A stretch of 42,367 bases of DNA, from the IMG/VR virus record IMGVR_UViG_2563366848_000004. One strand, 5' to 3'. The stretch's first letter is position 1; each line of letters begins with the position of its first letter. A model generated the notes under the pieces. That model did not search any database, was not told where the DNA came from, and saw nothing but the letters and a program-made list of their open reading frames with translations. Positions 16,345 through 22,911 of the stretch are shown here, piece by piece. The position numbers and the translations under genes are program-made. This DNA comes from a virus (taxonomy: Duplodnaviria > Heunggongvirae > Uroviricota > Caudoviricetes).

Positions 16345-16731
16345 ATGTCCGATCCAATTTCCGGTACTGGGCTGGCTGGTGGTGCCCTGACGGGTGCCAG
16401 TGTTTATGGACTGCTGACCGGAACTGATTACGGCGTTGTATTTGGCGCATTTGCAGGGGCTGTATTCTACATAGCAACAGCAGCGGATCTGAGCGCATCG
16501 CGCCGACTGGCATATTTTATCGTGTCGTATATTGCCGGGATCCTTTGCTCTGGGTTGGTTGGCTCCAAGCTGGCAAGCTTGACCGGATACAGTGATAAAC
16601 CTCTGGATGCCATTGGTGCCGTAATCGTATCTGCTTTAGCCGTTAAGATCCTGACGTTCCTGAATAATCAGGATATCGGGTCGCTGGTGGCGCTCATAAC
16701 GCGCCGGGGAGGTTCAGGTGGAGCTAAATGA
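16345..16731 (+). CDS. putative holin
   Basis: 128-aa Gly/Ala-rich membrane protein with several hydrophobic segments, first gene of the lysis cassette upstream of the endolysin. Confidence 0.6.
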   Translation: MSDPISGTGLAGGALTGASVYGLLTGTDYGVVFGAFAGAVFYIATAADLSASRRLAYFIVSYIAGILCSGLVGSKLASLTGYSDKPLDAIGAVIVSALAVKILTFLNNQDIGSLVALITRRGGSGGAK

Positions 16732-16999
16732 CCCGACAGCAACTATAAACGCGCTGTTATGTGCTTGTGTTGTTATTACTCTGATGTTTTATCGTCGTGG
16801 TGATTCGCGGCATCGTCCTTGGGTTTCACGTTTAGCCTGGCTGATTACTGTTACATACAGTGCTGTTCCGTTGGCCTATCTCTGTGGGATTTATCCCCAT
16901 TCCTCATGGCCCATTATCGTGGCGAATACTATTTTTCTTTCCGTGCTGGTGGCCGTCAGAGGCAACGTTGCACGCCTGGTTGATCATCTGAGGCACTAA
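16718..16999 (+). CDS. putative holin/antiholin-like membrane protein
   Basis: 93-aa ORF with three hydrophobic segments; GTG start with GGGAGG SD, overlapping the upstream gene; stop overlaps endolysin start. Confidence 0.5.
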   Translation: MELNDPTATINALLCACVVITLMFYRRGDSRHRPWVSRLAWLITVTYSAVPLAYLCGIYPHSSWPIIVANTIFLSVLVAVRGNVARLVDHLRH

Positions 17000-17613
17000 T
17001 GAACCAACAATTATTTCAAAAGGCGGCTGGTATCAGCGCCGGACTGGCTGTGCGCTGGTTTCAACCAGTAGATGCAGCGATGAAAGAATTCGGCATTACA
17101 GCACCCGCGGATCAGGCCATGTTCATCGCTCAGGTAGGTCATGAGTCTGGTGGCTTTAGCGCTGTAGTTGAAAATTTGAACTACACACCATCTGCGCTGG
17201 TGGCGACGTTCGGAAAGAGGATCACACAGCAGCAGGCTGATGCCCTTGGCAGAACATCCGGACATGCAGCTCGTCAGGATGCTATTGCCAATCTGGTGTA
17301 TAGCAACCGCCTGGGTAACAAAGCGCCCGGCGACGGCTGGAAATATCGCGGCAGAGGGTTAATTCAAATCACTGGCCTCGACAATTATCGCACCTGCGGG
17401 GCTGCTCTGAAGTTAGATTTGGTGACTTCACCTGAACAACTGGAACAGGAACTACAGGCTGCGCGCTCAGCTGCATGGTTCTACACCTCTAAAGGCTGCA
17501 TGATCTACGGTGCCGATATTAATCGTGTTACTCGCATCATTAACGGCGGTCTGAACGGTATTGAGGATCGTAAGGTCCGATACAACAAGGCGCGGGCGGC
17601 GCTGCTGGTATGA
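16999..17613 (+). CDS. endolysin, glycoside hydrolase family 19 (chitinase-like lysozyme)
   Basis: 204 aa; motifs FIAQVGHESGGF ... NRLGNKAPGDGWKYRGRGLIQITG ... RIINGG typical of GH19 phage endolysins. Confidence 0.85.
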   Translation: MNQQLFQKAAGISAGLAVRWFQPVDAAMKEFGITAPADQAMFIAQVGHESGGFSAVVENLNYTPSALVATFGKRITQQQADALGRTSGHAARQDAIANLVYSNRLGNKAPGDGWKYRGRGLIQITGLDNYRTCGAALKLDLVTSPEQLEQELQAARSAAWFYTSKGCMIYGADINRVTRIINGGLNGIEDRKVRYNKARAALLV

Positions 17614-18002
17614 AGATGAGTTATTGGGCGCTTATTTTAACGTTTATTGCTTGTATTGCTGGTGGTCTTGTCTGGTCAGCGAATCATTACCATGGAAAGT
17701 TTCTGGAGGAACAGCGGCGCGCTGACGATGCAGAACAGCGCGCTGATTCCTTTGAGACCATCACCGCGAATGTCCTGCGCACCGTAGCAATAACGAACAT
17801 CATTCTGGAGACAAATCAATATGCCAGGCAGCAGATCGCACTGGAGTCACAGAGAACCGAGAACGATATCAAGGCTGCTGTTGCGGATGATGATTGTGCT
17901 GTTCGTTTTGTGCCTTCTGGCGCAGTTAAGCGGCTGCACGACTACGCGAACGGTCTACGTTCCAGTTCCGGTGGTTCCGTTACCAGCCAACCTGACGGCT
18001 GA
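17610..18002 (+). CDS. i-spanin (Rz-like)
   Basis: 130-aa ORF with N-terminal transmembrane segment and charged coiled-coil-like periplasmic part; follows the endolysin. Confidence 0.7.
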   Translation: MKMSYWALILTFIACIAGGLVWSANHYHGKFLEEQRRADDAEQRADSFETITANVLRTVAITNIILETNQYARQQIALESQRTENDIKAAVADDDCAVRFVPSGAVKRLHDYANGLRSSSGGSVTSQPDG

Positions 18003-18165
18003 AACACCCCAGCCAGATTTACCCGATCCGTTTACGTGGGGAGCAAGCCTTAACCTGAATGTTGCGTTGTTGTCAGCGTTAGCACAGTGCAACAGGGATA
18101 AGGCTGATATCAGGACTTTCGAGAACAACAGGGCAGGACAAACAGATGGCACGATTAAACGTTGA
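17887..18165 (+). CDS. o-spanin (Rz1-like lipoprotein), +1 frame overlapping the Rz-like gene
   Basis: MMIVLFVLCLLAQLSGC lipobox followed by a proline-rich sequence; begins inside the Rz-like gene and extends past its stop. Confidence 0.5.
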   Translation: MMIVLFVLCLLAQLSGCTTTRTVYVPVPVVPLPANLTAETPQPDLPDPFTWGASLNLNVALLSALAQCNRDKADIRTFENNRAGQTDGTIKR

Positions 18166-18331
18166 AGTTATCCCACCAGACAGCGAGGTGCTGAACGGGA
18201 TTTTTGCAGAGATTGAGCGCAAATATGCGCGTCAGCCGCTGACGCCAAAAGTAATTGATGAAATGCAACGCGAAGCGACGCGCCTTGTACGGCGAATGAT
18301 AACCACAAAGGTTACGTTCGTCCGGGACTGA
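18146..18331 (+). CDS. small hypothetical protein (61 aa)
   Basis: Track ORF beginning within the Rz1 3' end; weak SD. Confidence 0.3.
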   Translation: MARLNVEVIPPDSEVLNGIFAEIERKYARQPLTPKVIDEMQREATRLVRRMITTKVTFVRD

Positions 18332-18385
18332 CATTACAGAAGCCCTTCACTGAGGGGCTTCGATAATGGAGCACTGGGATTATTC

Positions 18386-19006
18386 ATGAACAGACCACAC
18401 CCACCAGCGCATTTTACGATGCCACCTGACCCGAAGCCTTACATCAGCATAATGCCCGCCATTGACGTTGGCGAGTGGCTGAATCAGCACATCCTGAGCG
18501 ATGAGGGTGACCTCTACAACCCTGACCACCAGCATTTGCTTGAAGCGGATCTGTGCTTTCTCTGGGCGTCGAACACTTTCGAGAAGAAAGGGCGGTCCGT
18601 GCTGGGGCAGGCGGAAGAAGTGGCAATGCGGGCTGGAGGCTGGCAGAAAGCGCGGATGGAGCAGCAGATGTATGAATGGTTCGGCAGGGTGCCGCAGTTC
18701 ATCATCACGCTGGCCGCCGATTACTGCTCGCAATGTTCCGATCTGGAATTCTGCGCGCTGATAGAGCACGAGCTTTATCACATCTGCCAAGCGACAGATG
18801 AATTTGGTGTGCCGAAGTTCACGCAGGAAGGGCAGCCAAAGCTGAAGCTGCGCGGCCATGACGTGGAAGAGTTTGTGGGCGTGGTTCGCCGTTACGGTGC
18901 GAGCCGTGATGTGCAGGAAATGATTGATGCGGCGAATCAGCCAGCGGAGGTTGCTCATCTCGATATTGCCAGAGCTTGCGGGACGTGCATGCTGCGACTG
19001 GCTTAA
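18386..19006 (+). CDS. hypothetical protein with HExxH motif (possible metallopeptidase-like)
   Basis: 206-aa ORF; IEHELYHICQ contains HELYH; located between lysis and terminase genes. Confidence 0.55.
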   Translation: MNRPHPPAHFTMPPDPKPYISIMPAIDVGEWLNQHILSDEGDLYNPDHQHLLEADLCFLWASNTFEKKGRSVLGQAEEVAMRAGGWQKARMEQQMYEWFGRVPQFIITLAADYCSQCSDLEFCALIEHELYHICQATDEFGVPKFTQEGQPKLKLRGHDVEEFVGVVRRYGASRDVQEMIDAANQPAEVAHLDIARACGTCMLRLA

Positions 19007-19036
19007 AACTGGACTGAATAAGACGAATGGTGATTT

Positions 19037-19510
19037 ATGGCTGCATTAAAACCTGATGTGAAAGCCTTCATCATTCAGTCGCTTGCGTGCTATGACACGC
19101 CGACGCAGGTGGTTGAGGCTGTCCAAAAAGAATTCGGGATCAAGATCACCCGCCAGCAGGCTGAATCTCACGACCCCACGAAGGCCAGCGGTAAGACGCT
19201 CGCCAAAAAGTGGATCGAGATGTTCCACGCTACGCGCGAACGGTTCCTGACCGAAACCAGCGACATTCCGATCGCGAACAAATCCTATCGCCTCCGCGTG
19301 CTTGACCGCATGGCAACCAAAACCGAGGGGATGAAAAACTTCTCCCTGACGGCGCAGCTGATTGAACAGGCCGCGAAAGAGGTTGGCGACGCTTACACCA
19401 ATAAGCTGAAGGTTGAAAGCACTGGCAAGGATGGCGGCCCGATCAAGACCGAGACGACCAACCTCACCGCAGATCAGGCCGCAGAGATTTACCGCAAGAT
19501 GATGGGGTGA
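19037..19510 (+). CDS. putative terminase small subunit
   Basis: 157-aa ORF immediately upstream of the terminase large subunit; assignment mainly positional. Confidence 0.5.
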   Translation: MAALKPDVKAFIIQSLACYDTPTQVVEAVQKEFGIKITRQQAESHDPTKASGKTLAKKWIEMFHATRERFLTETSDIPIANKSYRLRVLDRMATKTEGMKNFSLTAQLIEQAAKEVGDAYTNKLKVESTGKDGGPIKTETTNLTADQAAEIYRKMMG

Positions 19511-19535: not shown

Positions 19536-19748
19536 CTAGGCTTGTTTTGGTCGAGTAATACGGCCAAGAGCTTTAATTGCAGCGACTTTGACGTTGTGAT
19601 TTAGATCCGAAGATAAATCAAGTAAGCGATTTACATGAGCTGGCGTTGCTGAAGCACTCTCGCCGAGAGCATAAATTGCAGACAATTTTACTTCGTTGTT
19701 AAGGTCGTTGGTTAATTCCAACAACTTAGCGCTAACTGCTGGTGTCAT
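19536..19748 (-). CDS. hypothetical HEAT-like repeat protein (70 aa), antisense between terminase genes
   Basis: Internal ATG preceded by AGGAGG; two repeats of N.VK.AAI.ALG type (NEVKLSAIYALGE / NHNVKVAAIKALGR); comparatively AT-rich. Confidence 0.4.
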   Translation of the reverse strand: MTPAVSAKLLELTNDLNNEVKLSAIYALGESASATPAHVNRLLDLSSDLNHNVKVAAIKALGRITRPKQA

Positions 19749-19819
19749 AAAACCTCCTGTAATTGGTACATAAACAATATCAACTTTGTTACGCAAAAAC
19801 TCAATGCCTGGAATTGTTT

Positions 19820-21442
19820 ATGCCTCTTCCGTTTGAATTCGATTTCAGAAACCCTGATTACCAGATGGTTTTTGAATGGCGGATGGAGCGCTTACAGCGC
19901 ATTCGCCAGAACCCTGAAATGCTGCCAGCACTAAAGCAGTTTTACCGCACCAACCCGGCACAGTTCATCATCGACTGGGGTATGACTACTGACCCGCGTA
20001 ACATCGATTATGGCCTGCCGGTCACAATCCCTTTTCTGCTGTTCCCGAAACAGGAAGAGTGGATTCACTGGATCATTGAGCGGCGCGAACGACTGGAGAA
20101 CGGCATCACCGAAAAGAGCCGCGAAATGGGGCTCAGTTGGACCGCGATCGGGCTGGCCTGCTCGCTTTGTCTCTTCAACAAAGAAATGGTTATCGGTTTC
20201 GGCTCCCGTAAAGAGGAATACGTCGACAGCACCGGTGACCCGAAGGCGCTGTTCTGGAAGGCGCGAAAGTTCGTGGAAACACTGCCCATCGAGTTTCGTG
20301 GTTCGTGGGACGAGAAGAAGCATGCGCCGTATATGCGCGTTGAGTTTCCAGATACTGGCGCGGTTATCAAAGGCGAGGCTGGCGACAATATCGGACGTGG
20401 TGACCGTACCACGCTCTACCTGGTGGATGAAGCTGCATTCCTCCAGCGTCCTCTGTTGATTGATGCGGCGCTGTCGCAAACCACCCGTTGCCGTATTGAC
20501 CTGAGCTCGGTTAATGGCATGGCGAACCCGTTCGCGCAGAAGCGCCACGGCGGAAAAATACCAGTATTCACATTCCACTGGCGAGATGACCCGCGCAAGG
20601 ATGAAGAGTGGTATCGCAGGGAGTGCGAGAAAATCGATAATCCGGTGGTGGTGGCGCAGGAACTTGACCTGAACTACAGCGCATCTGCGGAAGGCGTCCT
20701 GATCCCGTCCGACTGGGTACAGGCTGCCGTCGACGCGCATATCAAACTTGGTATTCAGCCAACGGGCAAGCGACTGGGCGCGATGGACGTCGCCGACGAA
20801 GGCCGGGACAAAAATGCCTTTTCGACCCGTCACGGCTTCCTTCTGGAGAACGTGCGTGAATGGTCCGGCGTTGGCAGCGACATTTACCAGTCTGTTGAGA
20901 AGGTCTTCGGCTTTTGCGAACAGGACAACCTCGAAGAGTTTCGCTTCGACGAGGACGGCCTGGGTGCTGGCGTTCGCGGCGATGCGCGCGCCATCAACGA
21001 ACTGCGTTACGTAGCGCGCCGACCGTCAATACTCGCCACACCGTTTCGTGGTAGCGGCGCGGTATTTGATCCGGACGATGAAGCGGTGCGCGGGGACAAC
21101 GGACAGGCCGCACGCCTGAACAAGGACTTCTTCGCCAACGCCAAGGCCCAGAGCTGGTGGTGGCTACGCAAGCTTTTCCAGAACACCTATCGCGCCGTGG
21201 TTGAGGGCATGGCCTACAACCCGGACGAAATCATCTCAATCAGCAGCGCCATGGCGAGCAAAGACAAACTCATCATTGAGCTGTCGCAGCCGACCTACTC
21301 CATTAATGGCGTGGGGAAAATCGTTGTTGATAAACAGCCTGATGGCACCAAGTCGCCGAACCTCGCCGACTCGGTGATGATCAGCTACGCGCCAATGAAT
21401 TCAGCCCTGAACATCTGGGAGCTGCTAGGGAGACAGGCCTGA
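19820..21442 (+). CDS. terminase large subunit
   Basis: 541 aa from ATG 19820 (track ORF starts at TTG 19763); ATPase Walker-B-like [10 protein letters not shown] and C-terminal nuclease-type region; followed by portal with ATGA overlap. Confidence 0.8.
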
Positions 21443-22911
21443 TGGCACGAAACAAGCAATCCTCTCAGCGAACGGCACAGGCCACCGCTGACGGCTACGA
21501 GAACTTCGTCGCCCGCGTTGGGATGCAGACGCCTAACCAGCATTCAGCATCGACCTACCGGGCGAACTTCACCAGCCGCAACCGCATGCTGGTGGAATGG
21601 TCATATCGCGGTTCGTGGGTTATCGGTGAAGCGGTCGACGCTATCCCGGACGATATGACCCGAAAGGGCATTCGCATCACTTCGGAGATTGACGCCAAAG
21701 ACCGTGGCACCCTCGAAGCGCAACTGGATGAGTTGCAGATCTGGGATGCGCTGAACGACGTGCTGAAATGGTCGCGCCTCTACGGCGGCGCGGTCGGCTT
21801 CATCATGATCGAGGGGCAAGCACCAATGACCCCGCTGCGACTCGAAACCATTGGCGAGGGCAAGTTTAAGGGCATTCTCCCGCTCGACCGCTGGATGATT
21901 AACCCGGTGCTGACACGCCGCATTAAAGAGATGGGGCCGGACCTCGGCAAGCCTGAGTTTTACGACGTGGTGACCACCGCAACGGGCATTCCGGCCTGGC
22001 GCATCCATCACAGCCGCCTGATCCGCTTTGATGGCGTCACGCTGCCATTCCAGCAGAAGATGACCGAAAACGAATGGGGAATGTCGGTTGTAGAGCGTAT
22101 CTGGGATCGGCTTACTGCGTTCGATAGCGCTACTGTCGGCGCGGCGCAGCTGGTCTATAAAGCGCATCTGCGTACCTATAGCGTGGAGAAGTTGCGCGAG
22201 CTTATCGCGCTTGGAGGCCCGGCGTTCGAAGCGTTGCTGAAGAACATCGACCTGATCCGCCAGTTCCAGAGCAATGAAGGTATGACGCTCATGGACTCGC
22301 GGGATAAGTTCGAAACCCACCAGTACAGCTTTAGTGGTCTGGATGACATTCTTTCGCAGTTTGCTGAGCAGATCAGCGGTGCCGTTGGTATCCCGCTGGT
22401 ACGCCTGTTCGGTCAATCCCCGAAAGGCTTCTCTACTGGTGATGCAGACCTCGCCAACTATTACGACCGGGTGAGCTCATTGCAGGAGCGCCGCTTACGG
22501 CTGCCGATGCGCCGGATACTGGACATTATGCACCGCTCGGAACTCGGAAAGCCGCTGCCGGACGATTTCACGTTTGAGTTTAACCCGCTATGGCAAATGT
22601 CAGACGTTGACCGATCAACGGTGGCCGTAAACACCACCAACGCGATCAGTACCGCGCTGGGCGACGGATTGATGACGCGTAAGGCGGCGATGACCGACCT
22701 GCGCGAAAACTCTGACGTCACCGGCATCGGGGCATCCATTACCGACGAGGATATCGAGAATGCCGAAGACGAAGCGCCGCCAGGCATCGGCGAACTTGGC
22801 GACAAACCGCCAGAGCCGCCAGGCGGAGATCCGATATCGAACGAGCCTACGGCAGATAGCGCGGGCGGTCGGGGATATCGTAAATGGTCGCTACGATGGT
22901 TCAAACGATAG
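21442..22911 (+). CDS. portal protein
   Basis: 489-aa ORF immediately after terL; size and position typical; acidic C-terminal tail. Confidence 0.7.
   Translation: MARNKQSSQRTAQATADGYENFVARVGMQTPNQHSASTYRANFTSRNRMLVEWSYRGSWVIGEAVDAIPDDMTRKGIRITSEIDAKDRGTLEAQLDELQIWDALNDVLKWSRLYGGAVGFIMIEGQAPMTPLRLETIGEGKFKGILPLDRWMINPVLTRRIKEMGPDLGKPEFYDVVTTATGIPAWRIHHSRLIRFDGVTLPFQQKMTENEWGMSVVERIWDRLTAFDSATVGAAQLVYKAHLRTYSVEKLRELIALGGPAFEALLKNIDLIRQFQSNEGMTLMDSRDKFETHQYSFSGLDDILSQFAEQISGAVGIPLVRLFGQSPKGFSTGDADLANYYDRVSSLQERRLRLPMRRILDIMHRSELGKPLPDDFTFEFNPLWQMSDVDRSTVAVNTTNAISTALGDGLMTRKAAMTDLRENSDVTGIGASITDEDIENAEDEAPPGIGELGDKPPEPPGGDPISNEPTADSAGGRGYRKWSLRWFKR

Follow-up and report, generated by a model that had tools for sequence, protein, structure and literature searches.

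A predicted zinc metallohydrolase gene of family PF18894 and its near-constant partnership with DUF2280 terminase genes in temperate phages

The DNA analysed here is the IMG/VR virus record IMGVR_UViG_2563366848_000004 (Duplodnaviria; Heunggongvirae; Uroviricota; Caudoviricetes), a stretch of 42,367 nucleotides that is referred to below as the window and that represents a lambdoid-type temperate phage. Between the lysis genes and the gene for the large terminase (TerL), the window carries a gene for a protein of 206 amino acids (aa) with the metal-site motif HExxH, followed directly by a gene of the family DUF2280. The HExxH protein is a full-length member of the Pfam family PF18894 (PhageMetallopep, "Putative phage metallopeptidase"), and its gene shows near-obligate genetic coupling to DUF2280 across diverse phages. 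That the protein is a zinc hydrolase working with the DUF2280-type small terminase (TerS) at packaging initiation is the reading put forward here, and we give it about an even chance of being right. The protein itself is already catalogued, and the metallopeptidase idea is an existing database name. The partnership with DUF2280, the module swap described below and the co-varying repeat architecture around the TerS start, on the other hand, appear to be unreported in the literature searched.

Coupling of the HExxH gene to DUF2280

The coupling was surveyed from both genes. Starting from DUF2280, 80 loci (56-99% identity) were collected from one-genome-per-species bacteria, and they came from Enterobacterales, Pseudomonas, Stenotrophomonas, Ralstonia, and Comamonadaceae. 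The HExxH gene was located directly upstream of DUF2280 in 77 of the 80 loci (77 of the 78 that were assessable), with a gap of -22 to 33 nucleotides (nt), mostly 13-33 nt. Two of the exceptions were contig ends, and the third, locus L145, has DUF2280 after a tail-spike gene and no TerL-sized open reading frame (ORF) downstream, which looks like a rearranged prophage. Because it is present in nearly every DUF2280 locus, the HExxH gene behaves like a core gene and not like a moron.

In the survey that started from the metallopeptidase, 128 ORFs were grouped into 24 clusters at 70% identity, and DUF2280 was found downstream in 18 of these, adjacent in 14 and further downstream in 4. Relatives at 35-49% identity again had DUF2280 as the next gene and then TerL, despite different head modules, and in one distant relative DUF2280 and TerL were 4 kb downstream of the metallopeptidase. 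The phage-database records matched by the metallopeptidase and by DUF2280, respectively, numbered 62 and 62 for Acinetobacter, 44 and 44 for Pseudomonas, 8 and 8 for Vibrio, 7 and 7 for Burkholderia, and 8 and 9 for Klebsiella. Among 190 pairs, the downstream TerL belonged to at least 14 families and the upstream neighbour to approximately 82; since the families on both sides vary in this way, the metallopeptidase and DUF2280 genes form a constant unit.

The pairing is also visible across a record boundary. In Acinetobacter phage vB_AbaS_SA1, the record ends with the HExxH gene, and the gene that comes first after the origin codes for a DUF2280 protein (E 5.6e-39) annotated as TerS. In the same phage, an HNH endonuclease gene lies directly upstream of the HExxH gene, and the HExxH gene is followed by a terminator-like hairpin with a T run, a repeat of two copies of GCTGTACG, and then DUF2280 (L001, 4630-4654; L128, 1-40).

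DUF2280 in the small terminase position and a module swap

Escherichia phage vB_EcoM-689R2 has the same lysis-to-packaging layout as the window, and its TerL is 96% identical to the window TerL. As small terminase it has a Terminase_2 protein (E 5.9e-31), and its locus contains neither a metallopeptidase gene nor a DUF2280 body. The last 39 aa of the window DUF2280 protein (19391-19507) and of the 689R2 Terminase_2 TerS (L210, 4361-4477) are 64% identical. DUF2280 fills the small terminase role, because this tail is shared with a Terminase_2 TerS that serves a 96%-identical TerL. The tail, which presumably docks on TerL, is thus common to two unrelated TerS bodies, an example of mosaicism at the level of domains.

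The DUF2280 protein has the layout of a small terminase, i.e., a gene upstream of TerL, a helix-turn-helix (HTH), a helical core, and a C-terminal tail. In its model (predicted local distance difference test [pLDDT] 74.6), the N-terminal HTH is followed by long helices and a disordered stretch before the C-terminal helix. The top PDB matches of the monomer model were the G20c TerS structures (6ejq, 4xvn), at a non-significant E of 1.7-2.4 and a template modelling (TM) score of approximately 0.3.

Between the two phages, the metallopeptidase and the DUF2280 body are thus swapped together for a Terminase_2 body that comes alone. Because of this swap, the metallopeptidase is taken to follow the type of TerS, and not TerL or the head.

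Family membership and conserved residues

The 206-aa translation includes CALIEHELYHICQ (also quoted as FCALIEHELYHICQ). The match to PF18894 (E 5.9e-43, model positions 2-134 of 134) scored 146.6 bits against a curated gathering cut-off of 23.7 and was the sole Pfam match of the protein. A match to PHROG 513 (E 4.5e-96), which carries the label transposase, was also obtained; no NCBIfam model matched, and neither the single protein nor the family profile found a sequence relative in the PDB. Relatives numbered 3246 in a word-indexed search and 885 in an exhaustive search of 50%-identity representatives. Conservation was calculated over 131 representatives (35-55% identity), and a further alignment, A2, held 90 sequences, all of which also matched PF18894. 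Many Enterobacterales genomes contain proteins that are 98-100% identical to that of the window and bear the annotation "putative metallopeptidase"; public assemblies index the identical protein in 608 blocks, and the closest relative in the phage collection was Citrobacter phage Omnitron (98%).

By itself, the motif proves little. It arose in 2.9% of shuffles of the protein's own residues (approximately 0.6% expected with generic residue frequencies) and, out of 114 stop-free stretches in the whole window with a length of 100 aa or more, in one, so that its single occurrence in this protein is only mildly unusual. Among the representatives, however, H128, E129, and G171 were 100% conserved (H128 and E129 in 131/131), H132 and H158 were 99% conserved (130/131 each), and the HExxH was invariant in alignment A2 as well. 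The motif is not a chance one, because the metal-site residues are kept in distant homologues. An earlier note on this DNA, made from the sequence alone, had pointed out a 206-aa protein with HELYH at the boundary between lysis and terminase genes; the ORF, the DNA read, and the neighbouring genes bear this out. Its suggestion of a possible zinc-metallopeptidase motif is supported in part, HExxH being conserved among homologues. It had recognised the terminase boundary and missed the specific tie to the DUF2280 small terminase.

Several further motifs are conserved (Table 1). In the N-terminal RPxPP motif, R3, P4, and P6 were invariant in the set of proteins paired with DUF2280, and in long forms of the family the motif is where a fused HTH meets the catalytic domain. 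The model places another conserved His pair, in N-P-D-H48-x-H50-L, in a short helix (residues 46-51). Downstream of HExxH, H158 in the block G-H158-D-V-E-E-F could be the third metal ligand. As to the cysteines, C114-x-x-C117 was invariant in the enterobacterial clade to which the window belongs, yet was found in only approximately 20% of the family, and C133 is lost in this clade; C123 was 76% conserved. The commonest pattern was C123/C133/C198/C201 (51/131 representatives). C198 and C201 together with the upstream Cys residues are probably a structural metal or disulfide cluster, the position of which has shifted within the family. Strong purifying selection on such enzyme-like residues predicts a family of active enzymes.

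In the literature searched, no functional study of PF18894 was found, and the family appeared there only in passing annotations, as was the case for DUF2280, phage SprT-like proteins, and phage metalloproteases. The statement of the earlier note that the function is unknown still holds in that literature.

Predicted fold and links to known peptidases

The AlphaFold2 model of the HExxH protein, built from the 90-sequence alignment, was of very high confidence, with a pLDDT of 95.2 and a predicted TM score of 0.88, and the last residues had a pLDDT of 57. According to DSSP, a four-stranded sheet (56-78) leads into helix 85-99, strand 105-110, a short helix, and helix 119-131, the end of which is HELYH; the chain then forms a hairpin (133-135 and 153-155) and a loop with H158 and finishes with three C-terminal helices. 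Judged from the predicted secondary structure, the order of the elements is that of zincins.

The earlier note had proposed to look for a metzincin or SprT-like fold, and here its idea fared less well: Foldseek, the profile search of PDB sequences, Pfam, and hhalign returned nothing significant. The best Foldseek match in the PDB (E 0.39) is not a peptidase, and the only zincins that Foldseek listed were Ste24p (E 2.6-2.8) and HtpX (E 2.8), both non-significant. Against the BFVD viral library, nothing except the family's own viral members was significant. The profile search of PDB sequences gave 0 matches. The protein had no match to the Pfam SprT-like family (PF10263) at E up to 1; sub-threshold SprT-like matches occurred in 4 of the 90 relatives (best E 0.012), and DUF5700, the other secondary Pfam signal, in 2 of the 90. 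An hhalign alignment of the family profile with E. coli SprT (YggI) had an E of 0.011 and a probability of 3.9%, and its 33 columns were confined to the strand and the HExxH helix. With such weak signals, SprT family membership was not assigned, and a SprT-like nature may serve as a lead. Neither the protein nor its relatives matched Pfam M48 or M78, and at E up to 0.01 PADLOC models matched neither the HExxH protein nor DUF2280.

What stands of the zinc-metallopeptidase idea is carried by the PF18894 match, the invariant HExxH, H158, and the zincin order of elements, while the fold that was looked for was not recovered. That the protein is a zincin-type metal hydrolase is well supported. It probably binds zinc, and a peptidase would be its likeliest chemistry.

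N-terminal fusions in the family

At least 40 extra N-terminal residues were present in 35 of 130 family representatives. Of these extensions, 22 shared one domain (…AL…GD…AAK…VP…L..W…), 6 were of a second type, and 7 were singletons. The first type had sub-threshold matches to HTH_Tnp_1, HTH_8, MerR, and HTH_28 and is predicted to be a DNA-binding HTH fused before the RPxPP motif. The HTH_Tnp_1-like domain occurred in approximately 17% of the representatives, and a second HTH-like type raises the fusions to approximately 22%. The fused HTH is absent from the window protein, and the HTH of the long forms was unrelated to that of DUF2280 (hhalign E 0.53).

A repeat element around the DUF2280 start

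The spacer between the two genes contains a tandem direct repeat and then the Shine-Dalgarno region, and an inverted third copy lies within the DUF2280 coding region (Table 1). Across 127 unique loci, the spacer was 30-33 nt long in 111. The repeat consists of two direct copies of a 7-10-nt unit ending in ...AC, with a period of 10 nt in 67 of 88 unique spacers (10-11 nt overall). At least 7 of 8 positions matched between the copies in 55% of the spacers, as compared to 1.5% of shuffles and 9.9% of chimeric spacers. The unit varies among phages (52 types), and both copies change together. The copies in the window are a weak example, with 5/8 matches, and the inverted copy there shares only TGGAC with copy 1.

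Across loci, the inverted copy is located at +82 to +85 in DUF2280, around an invariant Val29 codon. A copy within one mismatch was found at +78..+89 in 34.6% of the 52 repeat types versus 4.75% in the cross-locus control, and eight other 12-nt windows of the DUF2280 coding region gave 0-3.8% inverted matches. No forward-strand copies besides the two in the spacer were found within 1.5 kb on either side. Where the two genes are separated, it is DUF2280 that keeps the repeat directly upstream, and no repeat was found after the metallopeptidase gene in loci without DUF2280. In L145, which has DUF2280 and no metallopeptidase, a degenerate copy (CTTTTAT…CTTTGTC) was seen by eye, and none passed the 7/8 cutoff.

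In loci with the long, HTH-fused forms, the spacer is 83-118 nt and the repeats are larger. In one of these (L090, 2292-2386), the 15-nt unit TGGACCACC(G/A)TTTAG occurs three times, and its first copy overlaps the HExxH stop codon; in another (L094, 5985-6102), CCGGCGCTTAGA occurs twice.

Pairing between the leader and coding-region repeats at the RNA level was considered and is unsupported, as the share of G-U-compatible mismatches (13-23%) was near that estimated for chance (approximately 17%). A protein-binding DNA site is favoured, because the mismatches show no G-U enrichment and the spacing of the direct copies equals one helical turn. The repeat is thus best regarded as a candidate pac or TerS recognition site; it may have an RNA role.

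Genomic context in the window

The HExxH gene is a real, expressed-looking late gene, which is located in the late operon directly before the small terminase. The coordinates of the gene, its motifs, the repeat, and the neighbouring genes are given in Table 1.

Table 1. Features of the HExxH gene and its surroundings (positions in the window)
Feature	Position	Strand	Details
Two holins	16345-16731 and 16718-16999		
GH19-type endolysin	16999-17613		
Rz/Rz1 spanins	17610-18002 and 17821-18165		
61-aa ORF	18146-18331		phrog_12811; function label: unknown
HExxH protein gene	18386..19006	+	ATG start, 206 aa; ORF list and DNA read agree
RPxPP motif (R3-P4-H-P6-P7), N-terminal	18392..18406	+	P4 and P6 90% each
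N-P-D-H48-x-H50-L, second conserved His pair	18518..18538	+	H48 98%, H50 95%, L51 97%
Cys114, Cys117, Cys123, upstream of the active-site helix	18725..18754	+	
HELYH (H128-E129-L-Y-H132), presumed catalytic metal site	18767..18781	+	Residues 128-132
G-H158-D-V-E-E-F block, candidate third metal ligand	18854..18874	+	H158 99%, D159 92%, E161 96%
C198-G-T-C201, C-terminal	18977..18988	+	C198 98%, G199 97%, C201 89%
Spacer between the HExxH and DUF2280 genes	19007..19036		30 nt; tandem direct repeat, then Shine-Dalgarno region
Repeat copy 1	19007-19016		AACTGGACTG
Repeat copy 2	19017-19026		AATAAGACGA
DUF2280 protein gene	19037..19510	+	157 aa; Pfam DUF2280 E 9e-50
Inverted third copy, in the DUF2280 coding region	19121..19128		GTCCAAAA, reverse complement TTTTGGAC; at +84, Val29 codon GTC
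Large terminase TerL	19820..21442	+	540-aa form starting MPLPFEF; PHROG 2; 540 aa in public assemblies
Portal	21442-22911		Followed by a MuF-like head protein

The 61-aa ORF overlaps the end of Rz1 and directly precedes the HExxH gene; it is kept in the closest prophages and is not family-wide. Between the two, a hairpin (18332-18368, -21.9 kcal/mol, z -3.7) without a U tract was detected; it may stabilise the RNA or act as a readthrough terminator. The scan for promoters and terminators around the HExxH gene gave nothing exceeding the shuffled expectation. On the reverse strand, an ORF with HEAT_2 repeats (19536-19796, 70-86 aa) is inserted between DUF2280 and TerL; it is moron-like and had a weak PADLOC match to HEAT-ARM_XIII (E 1.6e-4). 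The longest TerL ORF starts at a TTG (19763, 559 aa) and in that form would overlap the HEAT ORF, whereas public calls and phage 689R2 use the ATG at 19820 (540 aa). In the 181 Salinibacter phage records, represented by Salinibacter phage 2_3 (L129, 4432-7099), a distant DUF2280 adjoins a 540-aa TerL, and no obvious tandem repeat was seen.

Proposed role and alternatives

In the proposed mechanism, the HExxH protein would be a small soluble zincin-type hydrolase in which zinc is held by His128, His132, and probably His158, with Glu129 as the catalytic (general) base, and in which the Cys cluster would probably bind another metal with a structural function. Expressed from the late operon just ahead of the small terminase, it would act with the DUF2280 small terminase at the onset of packaging, at the pac-like repeat that brackets the TerS start codon. 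Most likely, it would cleave a protein on or near this DNA, which could be the small terminase or a host or phage protein bound there. Both the interaction with the terminase, physical or functional, and the substrate are proposals. A DNA-associated protease would agree with the HTH fusions and with the faint resemblance to SprT. A stronger version, in which DUF2280-type terminases have PF18894 as an obligate third, enzymatic component and the zincin acts on the complex of TerS and pac DNA on a repeat of two direct copies and one inverted copy, is offered tentatively, and we hold it to be clearly less probable than the general reading.

A number of observations weigh against a joint role of the HExxH protein and DUF2280. 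The Salinibacter lineage breaks the partnership: 181 Salinibacter phage records have a distant DUF2280 (33% identity) and TerL, and no HExxH homologue, not even a divergent one, was found within 5 kb of DUF2280. Six of the 24 metallopeptidase clusters have no DUF2280 nearby, and two of these precede a Terminase_3 TerL. The co-varying repeat tracks DUF2280 and not the metallopeptidase, and the two genes are separated by a terminator-like hairpin in Acinetobacter phages. Tight adjacency can arise from linkage in a recombination module without joint function. For the chemistry, the Foldseek result and the PDB profile search, with no significant match to a solved peptidase, count on the same side, as does the fact that no experiment on PF18894 was found in the literature searched.

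The most serious competitor, to which we give roughly one chance in four, is that the protein is a host-directed or anti-defence protease, or has another accessory function, and is co-inherited in the first slot of the packaging operon with no packaging role. Accessory genes are often located where lysis or regulatory genes border on the terminase, and the HEAT-repeat ORF has been inserted just downstream; one paper places the gene among "accessory genes". The Salinibacter phages do without the metallopeptidase, and in some lineages the gene lies 0.4-4 kb from DUF2280 or beside other terminase types. Accessory genes are patchy, however, whereas this one occupies nearly all assessable loci with a fixed gap of 13-33 nt and variable flanks, the 689R2 swap removes it along with the DUF2280 body, and PADLOC gave no match. 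Considerably less probable is a metal-dependent nuclease, another hydrolase, or a DNA-binding factor that aids pac cleavage, like the HNH protein with HK97-type terminases. Zincin-like folds can be nucleases (YbeY), and the further conserved residues of metal-ligand type (H48, H50, H158-D159, E161), the lack of a solved peptidase matching the model, the position beside terminase genes that HNH accessory genes also have, and the HTH fusions of some members would all suit such a function. Yet a helix that carries HExxH and its invariant Glu is typical of classic peptidases, the weak homology signals were limited to peptidase families (SprT-like, DUF5700), the Acinetobacter phages already have a neighbouring HNH gene, and TerL has its own nuclease.

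A protease for virion or prohead maturation, processing head, scaffold, or portal proteins, is improbable. The late position of the gene, where the morphogenesis region starts, and a family that spans several head types might suit such a role, but the relatives L090 and L094 already encode a prohead protease (Peptidase_S78), the gene is absent from 689R2 despite the same TerL and downstream order (a portal-sized ORF and a head-morphogenesis gene), and its presence tracks the type of TerS and not of the head. Finally, the protein is called a transposase by PHROG 513 and in the GenBank records of ZF40, phiPSA1, YMC11/02/R656, and others. We regard this as next to impossible: the protein has no transposase catalytic domain (DDE, HUH, serine, or tyrosine type), PF18894 being its only Pfam match, and the sole signal of that kind is the sub-threshold HTH_Tnp_1 in the long forms. 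The label of PHROG 513 exists because some members carry the HTH_Tnp_1-like N-terminal fusion; the identity is refuted by domain content, and the label spread by PHROG 513 is an annotation error.

PF18894 is not a scattered accessory gene. It is the near-constant partner of one TerS family in temperate phages of Gamma- and Betaproteobacteria, and the pair occurs in common prophages of Klebsiella, Enterobacter, Pseudomonas, and Acinetobacter. A widespread uncharacterised family thereby gains a testable hypothesis, that of an accessory enzyme for packaging initiation, DUF2280 gains a functional assignment as small terminase, and its type of terminase gains a candidate pac site. If the hypothesis is true, this would be a new class of accessory enzyme for phage DNA packaging, with a standing comparable to that of the HNH proteins of HK97-like phages, and if a protease is truly needed for packaging, a new requirement in a well-studied process.

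Comparison with known systems

The closest known counterpart is PF18894/PHROG 513 itself, of which the window protein is a full-length member with the same invariant HExxH; PHROG 513 mislabels this uncharacterised family as a transposase. With the DNA-dependent zincin proteases SprT-like/Spartan/Wss1, the protein shares a strand followed by the HExxH helix, Cys-rich elements, and a downstream His block of the type H-[GD]-x-E-[FW] (PHGKEW in E. coli SprT, GHDVEEF here), as well as an association with DNA, which would here come through the HTH fusions and the terminase context. It differs in that the distance from HExxH to the His is approximately 25 residues, including a β-hairpin, as opposed to approximately 12 in E. 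coli SprT, and in that no Spartan or Wss1 structure was recovered by Foldseek. The likeness to M48 (Ste24p, HtpX) is that of a HExxH zincin core, with weak, non-significant local Foldseek matches (E 2.6-2.8). ImmA/IrrE (M78) likewise combines a zincin with an HTH protein, but its genes are found beside repressors and not beside terminases.

For the DNA element, as distinct from the HExxH protein, the pac site of SPP1/SF6 is comparable, with pacL, pacC, pacR, and the direct repeats boxA/B/C spanning the TerS start codon (PMC4737164). Both have short repeated boxes upstream of the TerS gene and in its 5' end. The candidate element described here differs in having two direct copies one helical turn apart and an inverted copy approximately 104 bp away, all co-varying.

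As a partner of a terminase, the HExxH protein may be set beside the HNH endonucleases, which a 2014 PNAS study by Kala et al. reportedly described as accessory proteins of HK97-type terminases. Both are small metal-dependent enzymes, the genes of which are conserved beside the terminase genes and travel with a particular type of terminase. They differ in fold and presumed chemistry, and the PF18894 gene is found upstream of TerS in pac-type (headful-like) contexts, where its part in packaging is a proposed one. In Acinetobacter phages, the PF18894 gene and an HNH gene co-exist.

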